A stretch of 64,000 nucleotides of DNA. It comes from Nitrospirales bacterium (GTDB lineage Bacteria > Nitrospirota > Nitrospiria > Nitrospirales > UBA8639). The stretch covers positions 672,001-736,000 of the forward strand of contig CBDCWC010000003.1 of NCBI GenBank assembly GCA_965223295.1, given 5' to 3'. A program made the position numbers and the translations under genes. This document shows positions 45,547-60,540 of the stretch, piece by piece. The notes beneath the pieces are model-generated. The model was not told the DNA's origin, did not search any database, and was given only the letters and a program-made list of their open reading frames with translations. The first letter of the stretch is position 1. Each line of letters begins with the position of its first letter.

Positions 45547-45642
45547 TTAATTGCGCCGCTTCGCGAACTTCATGCGGCGGCGAAGTTTTTTATGTTTATG
45601 CTTGCGCATCTTCTTCCTCCGCTTTTTGACCACACTGGACAT
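45547..45642 (-). CDS. 30S ribosomal protein bS22 / AURKAIP1-COX24-type basic peptide (31 aa)
   Basis: MSSVVKKRRKKMRKHKHKKLRRRMKFAKRRN; below the ORF-track cutoff. Confidence 0.92.
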   Translation of the reverse strand: MSSVVKKRRKKMRKHKHKKLRRRMKFAKRRN

Positions 45643-53360: not shown

Positions 53361-54177
53361 ACCCTTGCGAATTTCCGCCACCTGCACGATACCCTTCCAA
53401 GTCAACGGTCACAGTCTTAAACCCCAAGTCTTTCAAGGCGGCAACAAGACGAGACCGCCGAGGCTCTTCCGCCAGCAACGGAATTTCTGAAGATCCAACT
53501 TCGATGCGGGCCATTTCTCCATGTAGGCGGACACGTACCTGAGTCAATCCCTCTGCCAACAAAAACGCTTCGGCCTGTTCAACGCGAGATAACGATGCTG
53601 TTGTAATAGAAATCCCTCGGGCGATTCGAGAGGATAGACAAGCCGCTGCAGGTTTTTTCCAATTGGCTAGGCCCAAAGCTTGAGCCAATTGTCGGATATC
53701 AGACTTATTGCAATTGGCTTCTAATAAGGGGCTTTGCACACCTAACTGTTTTCCGGCTTGAATGCCGGGCCGGTCTTCACCCATATCATCAACATTCGTT
53801 CCATCCACAATTGCTTGAAAACCAGCATCCTTTTGAATCTTTGACAGCAACTGATAGAGATCCGTTTTGCAATGAAAACAGCGCGATGCATCATTCTGCA
53901 CAAATGCTTCGATTTGTAATTGATCGGTTTCAACAATCTGTAGTGGCACACCAATGTCTTGACACAAACGCCGGGCATCTTCCAGTTCACTCTGAGTCAA
54001 GGTCGGCGAAGTGGCAATAACGGCTTTGGCCGACTGCGCAAGAGTATCAACAGCCACCTTCAATACCAATGTGCTGTCTACTCCGCCCGAAAAGGCCACG
54101 ACCACAGATCCCAGATCTTGAAAAATTTTCTGTAACTGGCCGTATTTACGTTGAAGGGCTGGCTCAAGACTCAGCAT
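53359..54177 (-). CDS. larE: LarE-family PP-loop sulfur transferase (TIGR00268)
   Basis: AFSGGVDS, RCFHCK, DGTN.DD...RPG, ACLSSR, RVR.H, DL.GYR. Confidence 0.92.
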   Translation of the reverse strand: MLSLEPALQRKYGQLQKIFQDLGSVVVAFSGGVDSTLVLKVAVDTLAQSAKAVIATSPTLTQSELEDARRLCQDIGVPLQIVETDQLQIEAFVQNDASRCFHCKTDLYQLLSKIQKDAGFQAIVDGTNVDDMGEDRPGIQAGKQLGVQSPLLEANCNKSDIRQLAQALGLANWKKPAAACLSSRIARGISITTASLSRVEQAEAFLLAEGLTQVRVRLHGEMARIEVGSSEIPLLAEEPRRSRLVAALKDLGFKTVTVDLEGYRAGGGNSQG

Positions 54178-55261
54178 AAATTGGAAGCACTCGTTTGGGA
54201 TGAGGCATGGAAGCTTTTAACATTTCTGAAGCCGATTGCCCTAATTGCCCACAGGCCCCTAAGACATCATCCCCTCGGCTTTTGCGGAGAAACGCATCCA
54301 GTCCTCGATTGCGAAGAATTTGCTGAAATGCCTCAATACTTTCCGGAGCCGAACGTCGAAATGCACTACCGGAGAATTCATTAAACGGAATGAGATTAAT
54401 CTTATATCGAATGCCGCGTAACAATGAGACCAATCGATTGGCATCTTCTCGGGTATCATTCACACCGGCAAGCAAAACATACTCAAACGTCAATGGACGC
54501 TCACTAGACATGACATATTCACGACTGGCCTGTAATAAGGCTTTAAGATTGTAACGCTTATTCACGGCTGGCATTAGATAGTCTCGTTGCGCGTTCGTGG
54601 TCCCATTCAGAGAAATCGCTAGATTCACACCTAAACGTCGAACATCTGGAAACCGTGGAATCCAGCCTGCTGTCGACACCGTGATACGCCGAGGGGAAAA
54701 TCCTAATCCCCATTCAATATTTGTTAAACGTTGGATCGCGTCAGCTAGCGCTTCAAAATTCATCAACGGCTCCCCCATACCCATAAAAACCAGGGAGGTA
54801 AGATGCTCTGGTTCAAGCAGCATGGCTTGCACATTCAACACTTGACCAACAATCTCATGGGCCCGTAAGTTCCGTTTAATCCCCATCTGTGCGGTTAAAC
54901 AAAACCCGCAATCCAATGTGCAGCCCACTTGGGAAGAAATACACAATGTCCGACGACGTTCTTCCGGAATCAACACAGTTTCCACAGACAAGCCATCGGC
55001 CAAGCGCCATAAAAACTTTTTGGTGCCATCACCAGAGACCCGAGACGAGATCTTTTCATCCTTGTGAATTGTAGCGACTCGCTGCAAGCGCTTTCGATCC
55101 ACTTTGGACAGGTTGGTCATCGCATCAATATCAGCAACGCGATGCTGATACAACCATTGCAAAATTTGCTGGGTTCGATACCGAGGCCAACCAAGCTCTT
55201 GGACCAAGACTTTGGTTTCTTCCGCATTGAGAGCTAACAAATTCACTAAAGACGTCTTCAT
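54164..55261 (-). CDS. rlmN: 23S rRNA/tRNA m2A radical-SAM methyltransferase
   Basis: CISSQVGC...C.FC, MGMGEP, FEYVL, NLIPFN, ACGQL. Confidence 0.96.
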   Translation of the reverse strand: MKTSLVNLLALNAEETKVLVQELGWPRYRTQQILQWLYQHRVADIDAMTNLSKVDRKRLQRVATIHKDEKISSRVSGDGTKKFLWRLADGLSVETVLIPEERRRTLCISSQVGCTLDCGFCLTAQMGIKRNLRAHEIVGQVLNVQAMLLEPEHLTSLVFMGMGEPLMNFEALADAIQRLTNIEWGLGFSPRRITVSTAGWIPRFPDVRRLGVNLAISLNGTTNAQRDYLMPAVNKRYNLKALLQASREYVMSSERPLTFEYVLLAGVNDTREDANRLVSLLRGIRYKINLIPFNEFSGSAFRRSAPESIEAFQQILRNRGLDAFLRKSRGDDVLGACGQLGQSASEMLKASMPHPKRVLPIYAES

Positions 55262-55336
55262 TTTCAATCAATTACTCAGAATGTATCTCCACAACATGGC
55301 CTGATCATACCATCTCTTTGGAACTCTGCCACTCAA

Positions 55337-55561
55337 GGGCCCGTTGAAAAAAGCCGCCAGCAGCGTTCTCACCCTTTTCCCGTGCTCACGTACTGCCAGT
55401 ACGCGCCGCGCGCAAAAATAGCTGTGGCCTTGCTGGACCTGGCTTCGCCGAAGCGGCTTCGCGCAGGCGAGTGGACATTTTTGAACGGCCCCGATGCTGT
55501 TGATGGCGAACCGCTTCCGGGCGAAATATGGCCTTTGATATCTTCATTATTCAACACTCCC
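55337..55561 (+). mobile_element. MITE family B, long form with nested palindromic insert (225 bp)
   Basis: GGGCCCGTTGAAAAA...TTCAACACTCCC; ACTCAA duplicated on both flanks; extra about 33-bp palindrome near 55438-55470. Confidence 0.88.
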
Positions 55562-56005
55562 ACTCAAAAATCTTGGAGATTCCTTTTGTTGTGATTTCGA
55601 TATAATTCTTAGGTTTTTATACTTATCTACATATAGGCAAGAGAAAACAAACCAAAACAGCCGCAGTCAAATTCAATATCTGAAATATCCTTGAACATTG
55701 CATAAATCAGATCTTTGGGCAAGCATCGATTAAAGCATCATACTCTATTCAATTTAGGAAAAAGTTTTTATTTTTTGATGGCTATACCTATATTGGAAGA
55801 CTTCATGGTAGTCAATTTTATATCATCAATCTACCACATATTGGTCTTGATAGTGGTCTGTATACTTCTAATTGCTTCAGCTAAATACATTTAATCATGC
55901 TGATACCGAACGCCATACAAACGTACCATATACTCCACAGAGACAAATCATAATTTGTATCATTTACAGGAAGCATAGAAAAAATTTTAAATTAAAGCTT
56001 GCTTG

Positions 56006-56053
56006 TTGACTTTGCTTTAAAACACGAATAAAATTACCACCAATATATGGTGG
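56006..56053 (+). promoter_or_regulatory. sigma70 promoter with an operator over the transcription start
   Basis: TTGACT-N17-TAAAAT (56006-56034) followed by palindrome CCACCA-ATATA-TGGTGG (56037-56053). Confidence 0.75.
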
Positions 56054-56063
56054 AGCGAGAAAG

Positions 56064-56588
56064 ATGGAGAATCGGGATGATGAACTCGAAGATATCCTTG
56101 GCGGCTTGGAACAACGGATTAGTGTGTACGAACGAAAGCGCAAGGAACTTAAAAAACAGCGGGAGCAATTAGGTGAAGAAATCGCAACGGTTGAGAAATA
56201 CTTGGAGCTGGCAAAAACACTCTATCGGGTGGAAGCTGACAAAGCGAAACTGGCCAACCTCTCAATCCAAATCGCCTCACAAGAAAAAGGAGCCGTGTCG
56301 ACATCTGACGTCGACGCTGCGGCTCAATCGCGAGAGATTCTTCTGGGGCGGAGCAAGTATGTCGGACGAAGTGTCCCGGATGCGGTGTACATGGTTTTGC
56401 AAGAGGTAGGTCATCCCTTGCATGCCAAAGATCTGTATCAACGACTCAAAGAAGGTGGAATGCCCATCAGAGGAAAAACGCCCGTGACATCCATCGCCAC
56501 TTCCTTAAAACGAGATTCGCGATTTCGTAAAGTGGGGCCGAATACATTCGAAGTGACACATGACAAACCTTTAACGAAAGTGGTTTGA
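56064..56588 (+). CDS. Coiled-coil + C-terminal winged-helix (HARE-HTH-like) protein
   Basis: N-terminal heptads; DA.Y.VL...G.PLH.KDL...L......GKTP..SI...L.RD.RF.KVG..TF winged-helix pattern. Confidence 0.8.
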   Translation: MENRDDELEDILGGLEQRISVYERKRKELKKQREQLGEEIATVEKYLELAKTLYRVEADKAKLANLSIQIASQEKGAVSTSDVDAAAQSREILLGRSKYVGRSVPDAVYMVLQEVGHPLHAKDLYQRLKEGGMPIRGKTPVTSIATSLKRDSRFRKVGPNTFEVTHDKPLTKVV

Positions 56589-56637
56589 CAAGATAAGGGA
56601 TCAAGAGTTCCCTTCTTGGAGAAAGGAGGTGAGTGTC

Positions 56638-56724
56638 TTGGCCGTCACGAAGAAGAAAGCCGCTCCCAAGAGAAAAGCGGCGTCCGCTAAACCGAAAGCC
56701 AAAGCAAAAACTAAGAAAAAGTAA
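56638..56724 (+). CDS. 28-aa Lys/Ala/Pro-rich histone-H1-like microprotein
   Basis: AAAGGAGGTGA RBS, TTG start, MAVTKKKAAPKRKAASAKPKAKAKTKKK, then a terminator. Confidence 0.8.
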   Translation: MAVTKKKAAPKRKAASAKPKAKAKTKKK

Positions 56725-56747
56725 CCTGCAGTTCCCACCAGCAGTAC

Positions 56748-56785
56748 CGCCGGGGGTAGGGCCACCTGCTCCCGGCGTGTTTTTT
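56748..56785 (+). terminator. Intrinsic terminator
   Basis: CGCCGGGGGTAGG / CCTGCTCCCGGCG stem followed by TGTTTTTT. Confidence 0.85.
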
Positions 56786-56887
56786 ATTTCCTTACCATTG
56801 TCTACTCGCCTCAACGTTCCTTACAATTCTCTACATTCCAAATAGACGTGGAATTCCTGATAGCTCCCTCTTTCCCCTCACCCAACC

Positions 56888-57697
56888 ATGATGCTCTCTT
56901 CTAATGAAATCGACAACCTCACGCAAACGGCCATTCAAGCTGCCCGGCAAGGTGGCACCATCCTGCAAGACTATGCACAAAAGGGCTTTACCATTCATTC
57001 TAAAGGCGAGGCCATTAACCTCGTCACCGAAGCTGACTTACAATCAGAGAAAGCGATCATTCAGACAATTCGTCAAGCATTCCCAGATCACCAGATACTA
57101 AGCGAAGAAGAAGGCGCACAGGAAAGCCCGCCACATGCCATCAAATGGATCATCGACCCGTTAGACGGCACGGTGAACTTCGCACATGGCTTTCCTATGT
57201 ACAATGTCTCAGTCGGAATTGAATACAACGGGACCTGCGTCATTGGCGTGACGTACGATCCCACTCGCGATGAACTGTTTCTTGGACAACAGGGGCGTGG
57301 TGCAACACTTAATGGCAATCCTATTCACGTATCAGAAGCACCAACGCTCGAGCAAGCCTTACTTGTCACAGGCTTTGCCTATGACGTCCATACGGCCACA
57401 GACAACAATCTCAAAGAATTCTGCGCCTTCACGGTACGTGCTGGAGGCATGCGCCGCACAGGCACGGCAGCCATTGATCTCTGCTACATTGCTTGCGGTC
57501 GCCTGGATGGATTTTGGGAACTCCAACTTAAACCTTGGGACACCGCAGCAGGTAAAGTCATTGTGGAAGAAGCGGGAGGGAAAATTACAAACTACAAGGG
57601 AGAACCGTATTCTATATATGGCACCACCACCCTAGCCACCAACGGCCTCATCCACGATGAAATGAGAAACGTGATGAGAGAAGCGCGAACACCATGA
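56888..57697 (+). CDS. suhB: Inositol monophosphatase family protein
   Basis: VTEAD, EE, WIIDPLDGT.NF.HG, WD.AAG. Confidence 0.92.
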   Translation: MMLSSNEIDNLTQTAIQAARQGGTILQDYAQKGFTIHSKGEAINLVTEADLQSEKAIIQTIRQAFPDHQILSEEEGAQESPPHAIKWIIDPLDGTVNFAHGFPMYNVSVGIEYNGTCVIGVTYDPTRDELFLGQQGRGATLNGNPIHVSEAPTLEQALLVTGFAYDVHTATDNNLKEFCAFTVRAGGMRRTGTAAIDLCYIACGRLDGFWELQLKPWDTAAGKVIVEEAGGKITNYKGEPYSIYGTTTLATNGLIHDEMRNVMREARTP

Positions 57698-57791
57698 GCC
57701 CTTCTCTCACCACTCTGTTTCCACCCCACTGCATCAGTGGCCTCTCTTCGATTGGAACAAATTGGCCGAGGCGAGATGGATTCCTCATTGA

Positions 57792-57978
57792 GGGTCCCTT
57801 GAATACTTCGATCTCAAGTTTCGAAAAACCTTCAGAGCAGCGGTGCCTTCAATTCGACGGGAATGGTCAAAAAAGTCCGTCCAGCAAGGCCGCAGCCATT
57901 TGATGCGCGGAGCGTACTGGCAATACGTGAGCACAGCAAAAGGGCGAGAACGCCGCTGGCGGCTTTTTTCAACAGCCC
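57792..57978 (-). mobile_element. MITE family B copy (core 57859-57978; probable outer end at 57792)
   Basis: Core aligns with the other copies; GGGTCCCTTGAATA resembles the outer end; no TSD seen. Confidence 0.8.
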
Positions 57979-58138
57979 CCTAAAAGAAAGAACGCGATAT
58001 TTGACATGAAGGAAAGCCCCATCATTCCAAAGAGATTGCCCTACAGAAATTTCGGTTATCGATTTTTAGTTTTCGCGATGTGAGGCAATATCAAAAATGG
58101 ACGTGAGAAGAACAAAACAGCGCAGCCCAAAACCGGCT

Positions 58139-58669
58139 TCAATTAGATTCAGCGAGCAGGCGTTGGATGGTTTGTTCTGTTTGCTCATAGGCCCCTTCGC
58201 CGATGCGGGTATATTGAATCATTCCCTTTTTGTCAATCACATATAACGTCGGCCAGTAGCGGTTTCGGTAAAGCCGCCAGTTCTCAAAATCATTGTCGAT
58301 CGGGACCGCATAGGAGATGTGGTTTTCATGCACATAGTTTTTGACTTTATCTATTTCCTTCTCATAGTCAAATTCTGGCGAGTGCACGGCTATGATGACT
58401 AACCCCTGATCAGCATACTTCTTATGCCATTCCTTCACATACGGTTCAATGTTTCGGCAGTTCCAGCATCCAAACGTCCAGAACTCCACCATCACCACTT
58501 TGCCTCTCAACTCCTCCATCTTGAGCGGCTTTGAATTTATCCAAAATGGACTGATAATCTCTGGCGCTTGATTATTCTTAGCAAAACTTATTGAGACAAA
58601 ATTCAATATGGCACTGACCATACTGAAAATTACCAGACTTCTTAAGATCTTCTTTTTTCTGGCTCTCAT
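58139..58669 (-). CDS. Exported thioredoxin-fold redoxin (TlpA/DipZ-like)
   Basis: LRGKVV.VEFWT..CWNC, VHSPEF, YWPT.Y.IDK.G. Confidence 0.9.
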   Translation of the reverse strand: MRARKKKILRSLVIFSMVSAILNFVSISFAKNNQAPEIISPFWINSKPLKMEELRGKVVMVEFWTFGCWNCRNIEPYVKEWHKKYADQGLVIIAVHSPEFDYEKEIDKVKNYVHENHISYAVPIDNDFENWRLYRNRYWPTLYVIDKKGMIQYTRIGEGAYEQTEQTIQRLLAESN

Positions 58670-58852
58670 CTTTCAGTCTCCCTTTCAAATCTTGATATTC
58701 TTTCTAAATACATACCAAGAGTTCCCCAACTTTTTACTCTTGCTGCGGTTCACCCTCAATAGCGAGAGGGCTAACGCCTACTATTAAAACTACTTTCCCG
58801 TCTTCTCGATCAGTCTATTTAACTATCCATCTATTACAAACACTACAAGAAT

Positions 58853-58924
58853 AAGGGGTCAGACTCGATTTAATTTCCGCATATATCAGCAATAATGCAA
58901 GAATTAAATCGAGTCTGACCCCTT
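58853..58924. repeat. REP-like perfect hairpin (GGGTCAGACTCGATT family), copy 2
   Basis: 23-bp perfect inverted repeat (58853-58875 / 58902-58924) just after the prfC stop. Confidence 0.85.
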
Positions 58925-58938
58925 TTTAAGCCAATTGT

Positions 58939-60540
58939 TTAGCCCATGCCTTTGAAGTCGTGTTGGGGGTTGCGTTCACGGGCGAAGTTTTTGGACCAGG
59001 CGCTGCGGAACAGAACGACGGGGCGATCTTGACTGTCCTTGACCACCAAGGCATCAGACGGAGGCCTAAATGTATCCACATCTCCCACTAACCAGGCGCT
59101 GGATTCGTATGGCAACATATCCACGATAGCTCTGACGCGATATTCGTTTTGCAAGCGAAACTCTAAGACATCAAACTGGAGACGCCCGACGGCCCCGACG
59201 AAAAAGTCCAAGCCATCCAAACTTCGCATGATTTGAATGGCGCCCTCCTTCGCAAGTTGCTCAATCCCTTTATCGAAAGACTTTCGCATGGTGGTATCCT
59301 TCGGACGAACCCGTGCAAAGACTTCAGGTTGAAATTGAGGAAGCGGTTTGTAGTTAAAACCTTCTGTCAAGGAGATGGTATCACCAATTTGAAACGCGCC
59401 CGTATTAATAATTCCGATCACGTCTCCCGGATACGCGGCATCTACCGTGTTTCGTTCTTTGGCAACCATGCTGTGCGGACGGGATAGCCTCACATCGCTT
59501 TTTGTCCGATGATGTTTCACAACCATGTCCCGATCAAATTTTCCCGAACAAACGCGCATGAAGGCGGTACTATCTCGATGACGTGGATTCATATTAGCCT
59601 GAAGTTTAAACACATAGGCGCTAAAAGGCACCTCTGCGGGATCAATAGCTTGTTCTTTTCCATCTGAAGTTTCAGCTATCCGGGCATGGGGATGTGGGGC
59701 CATATCCACAAAGGCATCAAAAAATGGCTCCACACCGAAATTGGTGAGAGCCGATCCAAAAAATACCGGTGTAACTTTCCCATCCTGAAACGCATCAATT
59801 GAAAACGGATTCCCCGCAATCTCTAATAACTCTAGATCATGCTCTAACTCTTCCCAGATGTAAGTTGGCACGCGACTCTTCAGAGAAGGATCATCTAGAG
59901 ACAACTCGGTCAATTCCGGCTTAGCTGCTCCAGCCTTCGCAGTCTTAGTATAGAGCAACACCTGACAGGTTTCCCGGTTCACGACACCCATAAACTCGCG
60001 CCCGGATCCGATGGGCCAATTGATAGGACTTGCGTGAATCCTCAAAATTTCCTCCACTTCAGCCATCAGGTCCAACGGTGGTCTTCCAGGAAGATCCATT
60101 TTATTAATAAACGTCAGCACAGGAATTTGACGAAGCCGGCAGACTTCAAACAGTTTTCGAGTTTGCGTTTCCACACCTTTAGCGGCATCGATGACCATAA
60201 TCGCACTATCGGCAGCTGTTAGTGTGCGATAGGTATCTTCGCAAAAATCTTGATGGCCAGGCGTATCCAACACATTGATTACGGCCTCTTTGTAAGGAAA
60301 CTGCATCGCGGAGGCCGTGATGGAAATGCCACGCTCCTGCTCCATTTCCATCCAATCCGAGGTGGCCATTTTTGAATTTTTTCTCGCCCCGACCATGCCA
60401 GCCGTTCGAACCATGCCGGAATACAACAACAGCTTTTCCGTTAACGTCGTCTTGCCAGCATCAGGATGGCTAATAATCGCAAACGTTCGACGCTTACTCG
60501 CAGCCGCACGAATTTCTTGTTGAAGTTGAGATGGCGTCAT
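58939..60540 (-). CDS. prfC: Peptide chain release factor 3
   Basis: RRTFAIISHPDAGKTTLTEK, SDWM.ME..RGIS, DTPGH.DF.EDTYR, GAVG.LQF. Confidence 0.97.
   Translation of the reverse strand: MTPSQLQQEIRAAASKRRTFAIISHPDAGKTTLTEKLLLYSGMVRTAGMVGARKNSKMATSDWMEMEQERGISITASAMQFPYKEAVINVLDTPGHQDFCEDTYRTLTAADSAIMVIDAAKGVETQTRKLFEVCRLRQIPVLTFINKMDLPGRPPLDLMAEVEEILRIHASPINWPIGSGREFMGVVNRETCQVLLYTKTAKAGAAKPELTELSLDDPSLKSRVPTYIWEELEHDLELLEIAGNPFSIDAFQDGKVTPVFFGSALTNFGVEPFFDAFVDMAPHPHARIAETSDGKEQAIDPAEVPFSAYVFKLQANMNPRHRDSTAFMRVCSGKFDRDMVVKHHRTKSDVRLSRPHSMVAKERNTVDAAYPGDVIGIINTGAFQIGDTISLTEGFNYKPLPQFQPEVFARVRPKDTTMRKSFDKGIEQLAKEGAIQIMRSLDGLDFFVGAVGRLQFDVLEFRLQNEYRVRAIVDMLPYESSAWLVGDVDTFRPPSDALVVKDSQDRPVVLFRSAWSKNFARERNPQHDFKGMG

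Follow-up and report, generated by a model that had tools for sequence, protein, structure and literature searches.

A conserved Nitrospirota operon encoding a coiled-coil HARE-HTH protein and a lysine-rich microprotein, a candidate DNA-architectural or regulatory unit

The question raised by this locus is what a 174-aa protein with a putative DNA-binding domain and a 28-aa Lys/Ala/Pro peptide, encoded one behind the other in a Nitrospirota genome, would do together, and whether the smaller of the two is a gene at all. This phylum includes the principal nitrite oxidisers, as well as the complete ammonia oxidisers, of soils, waters, and treatment plants; its members grow slowly and are hard to manipulate genetically, which is why little is known of their chromosome organisation and regulation. 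The locus lies in a window of 64,000 nucleotides, the whole stretch of DNA analysed here, and was originally predicted to be a self-contained chromatin module. Its promoter, 174-aa gene, Shine-Dalgarno (SD) site, 28-aa ORF, and terminator were all found as predicted between positions 56006 and 56785 of the plus strand, which carries every feature described below unless noted otherwise. This arrangement is beyond chance, since 55 of 57 orthologous loci share the layout and the substitutions follow a coding-type pattern.

The unit opens with a sigma-70-type promoter, TTGACT-17 nt-TAAAAT, at 56006–56034, which agrees with the consensus at 10 of 12 positions, bears out the claim of a near-consensus promoter, and sits in a block that is almost identical among the readable loci of the genus. 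The AT-rich region described upstream is likewise present, with a GC content of 0.30–0.355 over 55500–56099 versus 0.43–0.59 in neighbouring sliding windows. This tract is simply the promoter region of the 174-aa gene itself. The palindrome first taken for the operator (CCACCAATATATGGTGG, 56037–56053) is not conserved as such: its left arm varies among relatives, and only the right arm, which overlaps the ribosome binding site GGTGGAG of the large gene, is kept. A different element, the inverted repeat TTAAAGC-N15-GCTTTAA at 55992–56020, straddles the -35 box and is a candidate operator, the 174-aa protein being its putative ligand. Its half-sites are spaced 22 bp from centre to centre, its core AAAGC...GCTTT is retained in the genus loci, and related palindromes (GCTTTAAAGC and AAGCATGCTT) occur at promoters in other families; a scan of both strands of the 3.78-Mb genome found this single site. 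Rfam and tRNA scans of 54000–59000 returned nothing relevant.

The second gene of the unit, a micro-ORF with a TTG start, spans 56638–56724 (stop codon 56722–56724) and encodes the 28-aa peptide MAVTKKKAAPKRKAASAKPKAKAKTKKK. It is preceded by the very strong ribosome binding site of the original prediction, a full-length SD sequence (AAAGGAGGTGA, 56622–56632) that ends 5 nt before the start, and either GGAGGTGA or GGGGGTGA stands ahead of the peptide start in 55/55 loci having the ORF. The peptide contains 12 Lys, 8 Ala, and 2 Pro residues and neither Asp nor Glu, giving a net charge of +13 and a pI of 11.6, so that the acid-free composition resembling a histone H1 tail, noticed at the outset, is accurately described. 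Downstream of the orthologous large gene, 55 of the 57 Nitrospirota genomes examined carry the micro-ORF with the same SD, start, and Lys/Ala/Pro composition; of the two exceptions, one locus (L016) runs into a contig end and the other (L036) carries a degenerate peptide ORF. The length of the orthologous peptides ranges from 11 to 71 aa with every length change in frame, and those of 33–71 aa are built from KKKPAA- and KKAPAKK-type repeats.

Among 14 orthologues of the same length, the 29 codons vary in 6, 9, and 25 columns at the first, second, and third positions, respectively, and pairwise codon differences comprise 874 synonymous versus 279 non-synonymous changes. This concentration of variation at third codon positions, together with the presence in 55 of 57 genomes, identifies the micro-ORF, on comparative grounds, as a real coding gene. 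As anticipated, no gene caller records it; the exact 28-aa sequence does not occur in a collection of 15 billion proteins, and the peptide has no Pfam or NCBIfam match. Of eight sequencing runs, a single RNA run, a metatranscriptome (word share 0.04), contained any of the stretch, with its depth mostly on a dispersed repeat; its contigs showed small depth at 55972–56055 and 56644–56727, among a few other bins, and three runs of unrecorded kind (X2, X4, and X5) covered the whole stretch. The metatranscriptome is silent for or against expression, since contigs cannot give level, ends, or strand.

The operon is closed by a GC-rich hairpin of 13 pairs with the loop GCCA (56748–56777) and a T-run that extends the element to 56786, in line with the strong terminator expected there. 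An RNAalifold consensus of 23 sequences from three families retains the 13 pairs, eight of them with compensatory changes. The hairpin is present in nearly all of 53 distinct sequences examined and the T-run is restricted to some lineages; the element is an intrinsic terminator or a 3′ stabiliser of the operon. In the 23-sequence alignment, a C-rich motif, TCCCACC (56733–56739), just past the peptide stop, also forms conserved columns.

These signals raise the possibility that the micro-ORF is a regulatory device in which the act of translation matters, be it through stabilisation of the mRNA by a bound ribosome, sensing of lysine-tRNA, or control of the hairpin, and in which the peptide itself has no function. 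The conserved pairing of a full-length SD with a weak TTG start would suit such a device, as would the lack of a U-run behind the hairpin in several lineages and the location of the C-rich motif past the stop codon and ahead of the hairpin's G-run, where it could pair alternatively unless masked by a terminating ribosome. We regard this as very improbable: in four families the downstream neighbour is either convergent or missing, which leaves nothing to attenuate. The neighbour is convergent in 10/20 loci examined, being lpxC (PF03331, 278–346 bits) in 3/3 tested, one each from families f2, f5, and f14, and is co-oriented only in the genus of the window, so that the layout of a leader-peptide attenuator, in which a small ORF and its terminator precede a regulated gene of the same orientation, is not the one found. 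In addition, the constraint falls on the amino acids, with third positions free to vary (all four bases are used in Ala codons), the Lys/Ala/Pro composition persists over the whole length range of 11–71 aa, and independent paralogues with terminators of their own encode the same kind of peptide.

How closely the two genes are joined is best seen in families f5 and f14, where the stop codon of the large gene lies inside the SD of the micro-ORF and the peptide start follows 6 nt on in 8 of 9 loci. In these deeper-branching lineages the sequence context points to translational coupling of the peptide to gene 1. Readthrough of the gene 1 stop was considered and ruled out for f5 and f14, as an additional in-frame stop separates the two genes in four of the nine loci. 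Fused forms were sought as well: none of the best 150 cluster representatives has a K-rich tail, and no fused protein turned up in a search for longer ones (306–2000 aa), a negative to which the search tool assigns little evidential weight. In a set of 121 near homologues, P0091 (219 aa, encoded on a 1-kb contig) continues in frame into the peptide and two others (P0024 and P0043) read past the large gene in another frame; P0091 is not counted as support because it is a single case and may be a sequencing error.

The product of the large gene (56064–56588) has the predicted architecture of coiled coil (about aa 2–74), linker (about 75–100), and winged helix (about 103–164), on which the Pfam scan and the AlphaFold2 model agree. 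Residues 103–163 match positions 2–67 of the 71 in the HARE-HTH profile PF05066 (E 9.7e-8; 32.7 bits versus a cut-off of 25.9). The model (mean pLDDT 80.3) comprises a confident long helix over residues 2–74, a low-confidence linker over 74–100, and a winged helix over 104–164, with blocks of pLDDT 76–88 across residues 101–160; the last of these domains shows the three helices (104–115, 121–130, and 140–150) and the β-hairpin wing (strands 154–158 and 161–164) of its fold class. It is basic (net charge +5, pI 10.1) and is followed by a C-terminal tail of 9 residues with a net charge of +1. The a and d positions of the coiled-coil heptads are 81% hydrophobic, and a PDB profile search returned GCN4-like coiled coils alone.

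Homodimer prediction gave a score of 0.59, versus 0.00 for the best of three controls, a mark reached by 20/30 proteins solved as homodimers and by 1/23 solved as monomers, with the reservation that a coiled-coil prediction may score through its resemblance to the numerous coiled coils already solved. Contact agreement between runs was at least 82% and the pLDDT of the partner at least 71. The residue numbers of the contact pairs sum to about 65–69, which indicates an antiparallel arrangement. Modelling thus suggests that the 174-aa protein probably forms an antiparallel coiled-coil dimer.

With regard to the winged helix, a Foldseek search of the PDB gave no match at E ≤ 0.001. The top match was chain E of an S. 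aureus RNAP–promoter complex (8x6g_E, E 0.0042, target TM 0.65), and the N-terminal domain of the B. subtilis delta subunit (2krc) and the delta-containing complexes 6zca_D, 7f75_L, and 9a6y_A were also among the matches. The RNAP delta subunit (RpoE) binds the polymerase and not DNA, a point against DNA binding by the 174-aa protein, and is composed of an N-terminal HARE-HTH domain followed by an acidic tail. As delta is both a member of the same Pfam family and the nearest structural neighbour, the 174-aa protein could be an RNAP-associated factor of this kind, its HARE-HTH docking on the polymerase and the peptide modulating contacts between polymerase and nucleic acid. This is improbable in view of the reversed domain order, which places the HARE-HTH at the C-terminus behind a coiled coil predicted to dimerise, and of the absence of the long acidic tail, in place of which a basic peptide is supplied in trans; moreover, none of the structural matches reaches E 0.001, and they extend to generic winged helices such as Z-alpha, Rok, Fur, and forkhead domains. 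In the structural comparison with Rok and HARE-HTH envisaged in the original prediction, the match to the winged-helix DNA-binding domain of Rok is weak (5zuz, E 0.029, target TM 0.50) and ranks below RNAP delta and Z-alpha.

Orthologues of the 174-aa protein were found in 38 of 41 relatives and in 53 of 201 genomes of the phylum (E ≤ 2.4e-42). They belong to families f1–f5 and f14; none occurs in the 20 other families of the phylum sampled, and f20 contributes four weak matches to the coiled coil only. The unit is thus as lineage-specific as first proposed, and by its comparative record the operon is bicistronic, conserved, and Nitrospirota-specific. Proteins of the same architecture and length, with 27–30% identity over the full length, are encoded by Acidobacteriota (Blastocatellia, Pyrinomonadaceae), whose uncharacterised homologues form a neighbour cluster in the ESM Atlas (score 0.95). 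No Lys-rich micro-ORF follows the gene in any of the 22 acidobacterial loci examined, of 80 fetched.

The claim of a two-part system holds as regards linkage and fails as regards obligate partnership, for either gene persists alone. Three genomes of about 99% completeness (G226, G108, and G157) have no HARE gene and keep the peptide with its hairpin at the syntenic site, and L036 keeps the HARE gene beside its degenerate peptide ORF. One or two stand-alone peptide paralogues, with the SD and start context of the operon copy and terminators of their own, occur in the genus, where a pattern search recovered them in 28 of 41 genomes (reversed-pattern control, 0/41). A looser phylum-wide pattern proved unspecific, matching 177 of 201 genomes and many ordinary gene starts, and served solely for finding the cassette in the three HARE-less genomes. 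Along with the peptide-free Acidobacteriota homologues, these cases indicate, at the level of gene content, a pairing by co-expression rather than an obligate partnership.

Given the genus paralogues, the peptide may have a task that does not involve gene 1. The two products might then share an operon and nothing else, the peptide being a general-purpose polycation, acting on RNA, ribosomes, or polyphosphate, or else a ribosome-associated microprotein, and the 174-aa protein an ordinary autoregulated transcription factor. We consider this unlikely, though it deserves serious weight. Survival of the cassette after loss of the HARE gene, the genus-wide paralogues, and an inverted repeat with a single copy in the genome, which is what a specific regulator would have, all speak for it; tiny basic ribosomal proteins do exist in this genome, including a bS22-like ORF elsewhere in the window (45550–45642, minus strand; NF047430, E 3.6e-7), separate from the micro-ORF, and the H1-like AlgP is placed on polyphosphate granules by a reference annotation (PMC13052382). 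Against it stand the linkage of the two genes, maintained across two or more classes of Nitrospirota, and the embedding of the gene 1 stop in the peptide SD in f5 and f14, a tightness typical of co-functioning products. Furthermore, the Lys/Ala/Pro composition is unlike the Arg/His-rich motifs of bS22, and the peptide matches no ribosomal protein model in NCBIfam.

The best explanation, favoured at a confidence a little short of even, is that the operon produces a DNA-architectural or regulatory dimer together with a diffusible, H1-tail-like polycation. It starts from the observed gene structure, conservation, coding signature, fold class, and separability of the two genes, while the dimer is a model and binding and condensation are inferred. 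Briefly, the gene 1 product would dimerise through its long, probably antiparallel, coiled coil, a geometry that would hold two basic HARE-type winged helices, each on a flexible linker, at the two ends of a rod about 9 nm long. It would bind DNA, one putative target being the single-copy inverted repeat at the -35 box of its own gene, with autoregulation as the consequence, and it may double as an architectural or bridging protein. From gene 2, the full-length SD would drive synthesis of a microprotein of 11–71 aa (28 aa in the window) that is nowhere annotated and that would act as a diffusible polycation neutralising a polyanion, most likely DNA, in the manner of the H1 C-terminal tail or protamine. 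The two products would then approximate a split H1, the winged helix and the Lys/Ala/Pro tail being provided in trans.

The peptide probably coats DNA or another polyanion. In the same genome, topoisomerase I and a DksA/TraR-type protein carry Lys/Ala/Pro stretches similar to it, a context in which a nucleic-acid role of the peptide may be seen. H1-like polycations can bind polyanions other than DNA, which counts against the DNA reading, and peptides of 11–13 aa would be very short for a chromatin protein; the three HU/IHF-family genes of the genome were also counted against a chromatin role. A separate idea, that the peptide substitutes for polyamines or HU, is unsupported, as the genome has these HU/IHF genes and two spermine-synthase-domain matches with partial profile coverage. 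A bolder version of the favoured explanation would make the oligo-lysine microproteins (11–71 aa, several loci per genome) dedicated chromatin counter-ions, with the ancestral copy translationally coupled to an antiparallel coiled-coil HARE-HTH bridger of DNA, and the two products a putative split linker-histone-like nucleoid system, unique to the phylum, whose small subunit escapes all annotation pipelines; this we hold to be distinctly doubtful.

Whichever reading applies, the locus adds a well-supported protein-coding gene of 11–28 aa, conserved phylum-wide and absent from all annotation, and an uncharacterised coiled-coil and HARE-HTH family, found in Nitrospirota and Acidobacteriota, whose candidate operator can be tested. 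Since the locus naturally separates a winged helix from an H1-like tail, one could examine in trans what a polycationic tail contributes to DNA binding. There is also a practical warning in that standard proteomics and annotation both miss Lys-rich microproteins, because trypsin destroys them and their lengths fall under the limits of gene callers.

Comparison with known systems places the two products near several families. A literature search, mostly of titles and abstracts, found no paper on the 174-aa protein family or the peptide. The xenogeneic silencers H-NS, MvaT, Lsr2, and Rok combine N-terminal oligomerisation with a C-terminal DNA-binding domain, a plan shared by the 174-aa protein with its N-terminal helix, predicted to dimerise, and its C-terminal winged helix; none of these four families appeared in Pfam and NCBIfam scans of the protein at E ≤ 1. 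The ribosomal protein bS22 is a tiny, very basic, strongly expressed product that gene callers routinely overlook, as the peptide would also be, but has an Arg/His/Lys motif of its own. The peptide is Lys/Ala/Pro-rich, repetitive, and free of acidic residues, as are bacterial H1-like proteins, and shares its repetitive composition with the chlamydial Hc1/Hc2 (HC2, PF07382), the Burkholderia-type NF038053 family, Pseudomonas AlgP, and the Rv3852 family. The longer orthologues give weak compositional matches to HC2 (E 0.19–4.8), NF038053 (E 0.012), and Rv3852_fam (E 0.01), all of them far below the curated cut-offs, with 7.7–12.3 bits versus 40 for HC2 and 7.9–15.9 bits versus 80 for NF038053. 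At 11–71 aa, the Nitrospirota peptides correspond to a tail only, whereas the profiles of the H1-like families span 145–195 positions.

The closest parallel in overall design is linker histone H1 itself, in which a winged-helix globular domain is followed by a Lys/Ala/Pro C-terminal tail. Sequence homology to H1 was not detected in Pfam profile searches, and the Nitrospirota winged helix is of the HARE type and carries an N-terminal coiled coil predicted to dimerise. What the two systems have in common is the pairing of a winged helix and a compositionally very similar Lys/Ala/Pro polycation; unlike in H1, the Nitrospirota parts are separate genes that are able to exist apart.

Among the new results, the most secure is a protein-coding gene of 11–71 aa that is phylum-wide and unannotated. 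Its representative in the window, whose source genome comprises 3.78 Mb in three contigs, is a micro-ORF (56638–56724) that starts with TTG, encodes the 28-aa product MAVTKKKAAPKRKAASAKPKAKAKTKKK, and lies between the Shine-Dalgarno sequence AAAGGAGGTGA (56622–56632) and a GC-rich hairpin of 13 pairs with a T-run (56748–56786). On its 5′ side are a 174-aa ORF (the large gene, 56064–56588), the promoter TTGACT-17-TAAAAT (56006–56034; 10/12 matches), and an AT-rich tract (55500–56099) with a GC content of 0.30–0.355 versus 0.43–0.59 in adjacent sliding windows. All the elements listed in the original prediction, namely the promoter, 174-aa ORF, strong RBS, 28-aa ORF, terminator, and AT-rich region, are present. 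The divergent gene upstream is rlmN (TIGR00048, 370.6 bits), and the gene that follows on the downstream side encodes an inositol-monophosphatase (IMPase) family protein.

The DNA downstream of the large-gene orthologue was inspected in 57 different genomes, and the micro-ORF was present in 55 of them, with a Shine-Dalgarno site of the GGAGGTGA or GGGGGTGA type and a TTG or ATG 5–8 nt on. The 55 products, two of them truncated by a contig end (L031 and L032), open with MA(T/V/A), continue with Lys/Ala/Pro repeats, and contain no acidic residue when read from this start. As for the two misses, one contig stops 1 nt past the large gene (L016), and the other locus carries a decayed ORF, MKTFTATKAKTTAKAK, without a Shine-Dalgarno site (L036). 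Peptide length ranges from 11–12 aa in family f3, 12–13 aa in most of f2, and 14–15 aa in f5, through 16–18 aa in other f2 genera and 26–29 aa in the window’s genus, to 33–47 aa in f14, 36–44 aa in genus g8, and 58–71 aa in genus g4, with the frame kept in all intact versions. Among 14 same-length orthologues from the genus, variable columns at codon positions 1, 2, and 3 number 6, 9, and 25 of 29, and pairwise codon differences amount to 874 synonymous versus 279 non-synonymous. Such third-position-rich, mostly synonymous variation is what purifying selection on a protein, not on an RNA motif, leaves behind, and on this comparative evidence the micro-ORF is a real gene. The expectation that a conserved small subunit missed by gene callers would be found downstream of the orthologues was thus borne out. 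A GTG 8 bases 5′ was rejected as the peptide start because it falls within the Shine-Dalgarno site. Neither start variant occurs in a collection of 15 billion proteins, the 28-mer has no Pfam or NCBIfam match, and longer orthologues gave sub-threshold compositional matches to HC2 (E 0.19–4.8), NF038053 (E 0.012), and Rv3852_fam (E 0.01). Elsewhere in the window, a 31-aa minus-strand ORF, MSSVVKKRRKKMRKHKHKKLRRRMKFAKRRN (45550–45642), matches the bS22 model NF047430 (E 3.6e-7; 30.2 bits, slightly below the cut-off of 34) and is another tiny basic gene likely to escape gene callers.

The large ORFs of f5 and f14 end in ...ERG or ...ERR, with the closing triplet of GGAGGTGA serving as their TGA stop; 6 nt further on, in 8 of 9 loci, comes the peptide start. 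Judged from this layout, the two genes are translationally coupled in the classic manner. The Nitrospirales families have kept the Shine-Dalgarno site, and there a spacer of about 40–145 nt has opened up between the two genes. A hairpin of the GGGGG...CCCCC type lies 15–30 nt past the stop in nearly all of 53 distinct downstream sequences, followed by a U-run in only some, and an alignment of 23 sequences from three families gave a consensus of 13 pairs, 8 with compensatory double changes, a conserved loop, and a C-rich motif on the 5′ side. In the window this motif, TCCCACC (56733–56739; TCCCCGCC and TTCCCCTC in relatives), sits between the peptide stop and the hairpin G-run and could pair with that run or with the Shine-Dalgarno site; a single fold predicted no alternative structure. 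Of 20 loci inspected, 10 have a convergent gene after the peptide, and the three such neighbours tested (from f2, f5, and f14, one per family) all proved to be lpxC (PF03331, 278–346 bits). On this basis the small ORF closes the operon and is not a leader peptide. A purely regulatory role for the micro-ORF is very improbable.

Around the large-gene promoter the genus shares a near-invariant block, inside which lies the inverted repeat TTAAAGC-N15-GCTTTAA (55992–56020), unique in the genome; related palindromes, GCTTTAAAGC and AAGCATGCTT, occupy the corresponding promoter position in other families. This repeat is the likely operator; the palindrome first proposed for that role (56037–56053) was unconserved when upstream regions were compared across relatives. 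In f2, f3, and g8 (L021–L035, L047–L054), the motif GCTTGCTT recurs directly 5′ of the large gene’s start codon (GTG, TTG, or ATG), with its complement AAGCAAGC a few bases further upstream. The pair hints at a 5′-UTR hairpin that would mask this codon, and several starts in these loci have no obvious Shine-Dalgarno site. In one homologue, protein P0091 (219 aa; a public 1029-nt contig), the large ORF reads in frame via the spacer into the peptide, and in P0024 and P0043 it reads through in a different frame; natural stop-loss variation or faulty assembly may account for these cases. Two copies of an element of about 100 nt, 89–91% complementary, bracket the HARE-HTH gene, peptide, and IMPase block (55337–55438, plus strand; 57879–57979, inverted). 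With 40 scored copies dispersed genome-wide at 86–93% identity (from 264 first-look candidates), no Rfam match, and no tRNA identity in Rfam and tRNA scans, it resembles REP or MITE repeats and is not particular to this locus. A further inverted repeat (58850–58927; 33-nt arms, 88% complementary, 12-nt spacer) lies just past the 3′ end of a minus-strand 533-aa GTPase-like ORF, in the gap after a 176-aa ORF; Rfam gave it a chance-level plant microRNA match alone (28 bits versus a gathering score of 80).

Of 41 relatives, 38 carry an orthologue of the large gene. By the source names of the large protein’s homologues, the window’s genome belongs to Nitrospirota or Nitrospirales. When 201 genomes were drawn evenly across Nitrospirota, 57 were matched by the large protein, 53 strongly (E ≤ 2.4e-42): the window’s own genome, f1 (13/13), f2 (30/33), f5 (2/2), and f14 (7/7). 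Four weak matches in f20 cover the coiled coil alone within much longer frames, and no match came from the other 20 families sampled, e.g., f11 (0/50), f15 (0/20), and f16 (0/15). Searched exhaustively, a set of 1.84 billion cluster representatives returned 439 matches at E ≤ 0.001 and just 4 at E ≤ 1e-30. The same search yielded full-length proteins of like architecture, 27–30% identical, which a genome scan placed in Acidobacteriota (Blastocatellia, Pyrinomonadaceae), in agreement with the ESM Atlas. No family member has a solved structure, and the titles and abstract openings of the literature searched make no mention of the family.

Residues 103–163 of the large protein match HARE-HTH in Pfam (E 9.7e-8; 32.7 bits versus a cut-off of 25.9). 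An AlphaFold2 model from a 28-sequence alignment (mean pLDDT 80.3, pTM 0.40) shows a single long helix at 2–74 (block pLDDT 94–98 over 11–60), a low-confidence linker at 74–100, and a three-helix winged helix with beta-hairpin at 104–164, in keeping with the coiled coil, linker, and winged helix originally described. The long helix has a heptad register with 81% hydrophobic a/d positions and is slightly acidic (net charge −3), and the winged helix is basic (+5, pI 10.1). Prediction as a two-copy complex scored 0.59, versus 0.00 in the best of three controls, a mark that 20 of 30 proteins with homodimeric structures and 1 of 23 with single-chain structures attained; because coiled coils abound among solved structures, the pass may reflect likeness to them. 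Run-to-run contact agreement was at least 82% and partner pLDDT at least 71. The interface spans residues 4–64, and its most confident contacts join residue i with roughly 65–69 minus i, so the model indicates an antiparallel coiled-coil dimer. Foldseek gave no PDB match at E ≤ 0.001; its top row, at E 0.0042 (target TM 0.65), was 8x6g_E from an S. aureus RNA polymerase complex (chain E). Next came Z-alpha domains of ZBP1 (E about 0.02), the DNA-binding domain of Rok (5zuz; E 0.029, target TM 0.50), and the N-terminal domain of B. subtilis delta (2krc; E 0.11). A profile search of PDB sequences found GCN4-type coiled coils alone (E about 0.06). Of the two relationships proposed for structural comparison, HARE-HTH held, and the Rok match is weak and stands behind the polymerase chain. 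Taken together, the Pfam, AlphaFold2, and structure-search results make the fold class secure, with DNA and polymerase both candidate ligands. A polymerase-associated, delta-like factor, to which the top Foldseek row lends support, is improbable.

Linkage over at least two classes, with the predicted coupling, favours co-function of the two products. Four findings speak against their being an obligate pair. Three relatives, each about 99% complete (G108, G157, and the single-contig G226), have lost the large gene, neither the large protein nor its family profile finding a match there, and retain MATKKAAKKKKK-type ORFs with Shine-Dalgarno site and hairpin, syntenic and between the same flanking genes (L138/L139/L140), where about 650–700 nt show no similarity to the HARE-HTH gene; in G226, weak colinear tblastn remnants (residues 30–59, E 0.005; 93–109; 139–159) suggest a decayed pseudogene. 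Conversely, G009 keeps the large gene with a degenerate linked peptide ORF (L036). Beyond the window, the window’s genome also has two Lys-rich micro-ORFs that stand alone, with like, near-perfect Shine-Dalgarno sites and hairpins of their own: one of 45 aa (C3:1145962, plus strand, L145), which follows a membrane-protein gene at a distance of about 375 nt, and one of 28 aa (C3:1618330, minus strand, L146); the 45-aa type is conserved in most genus genomes, G009 included (pattern in 28/41, reversed control 0/41). Finally, none of 22 Acidobacteriota homologue loci examined (of 80 fetched) carries such an ORF. The peptide would therefore have a function of its own, the operon providing co-expression. 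The lineage-specific character of the unit stands, strong large-gene matches in the draw of 201 genomes being confined to f1, f2, f5, f14, and the window’s own genome, and the two-part system survives as linkage and coupling, not as an obligate partnership. That the genes are functionally unrelated neighbours, as such independence would allow and their linkage disfavours, is unlikely, though a reading of some weight.

A DNA-associated, co-expressed pair of products is our tentative reading, at a little under an even chance, and a small remainder is left for none of the four readings; the original observation is confirmed and extended, and its interpretation partly supported. With its length free and its composition fixed, the peptide would act through charge, as a gene-encoded polycation. 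Comparable Lys/Ala/Pro stretches in the window’s genome make up the tail at the C-terminus of topoisomerase I and extend a DksA/TraR zinc-finger protein at its N-terminus, which points to a nucleic-acid-centred use; two further Lys/Ala/Pro-rich proteins have no Pfam family. Such stretches lie outside the window at L143 (873 aa), L142 (183 aa), L141 (326 aa), and L144 (262 aa). RNA and polyphosphate are possible targets, and a reference annotation places AlgP on polyphosphate granules (PMC13052382). In the modelled antiparallel dimer, a basic winged helix at either end would suit contacts with two sites spaced by about two helical turns, or the bridging of separate duplexes. Linker histone H1 combines a winged helix with a Lys/Ala/Pro tail, a combination that the locus resembles, here split into two genes; the resemblance may concern the mode of action, not family membership. 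The HARE-HTH protein and the H1-like polycation are of known kinds, and the new element most firmly established is the unannotated gene found across the phylum.
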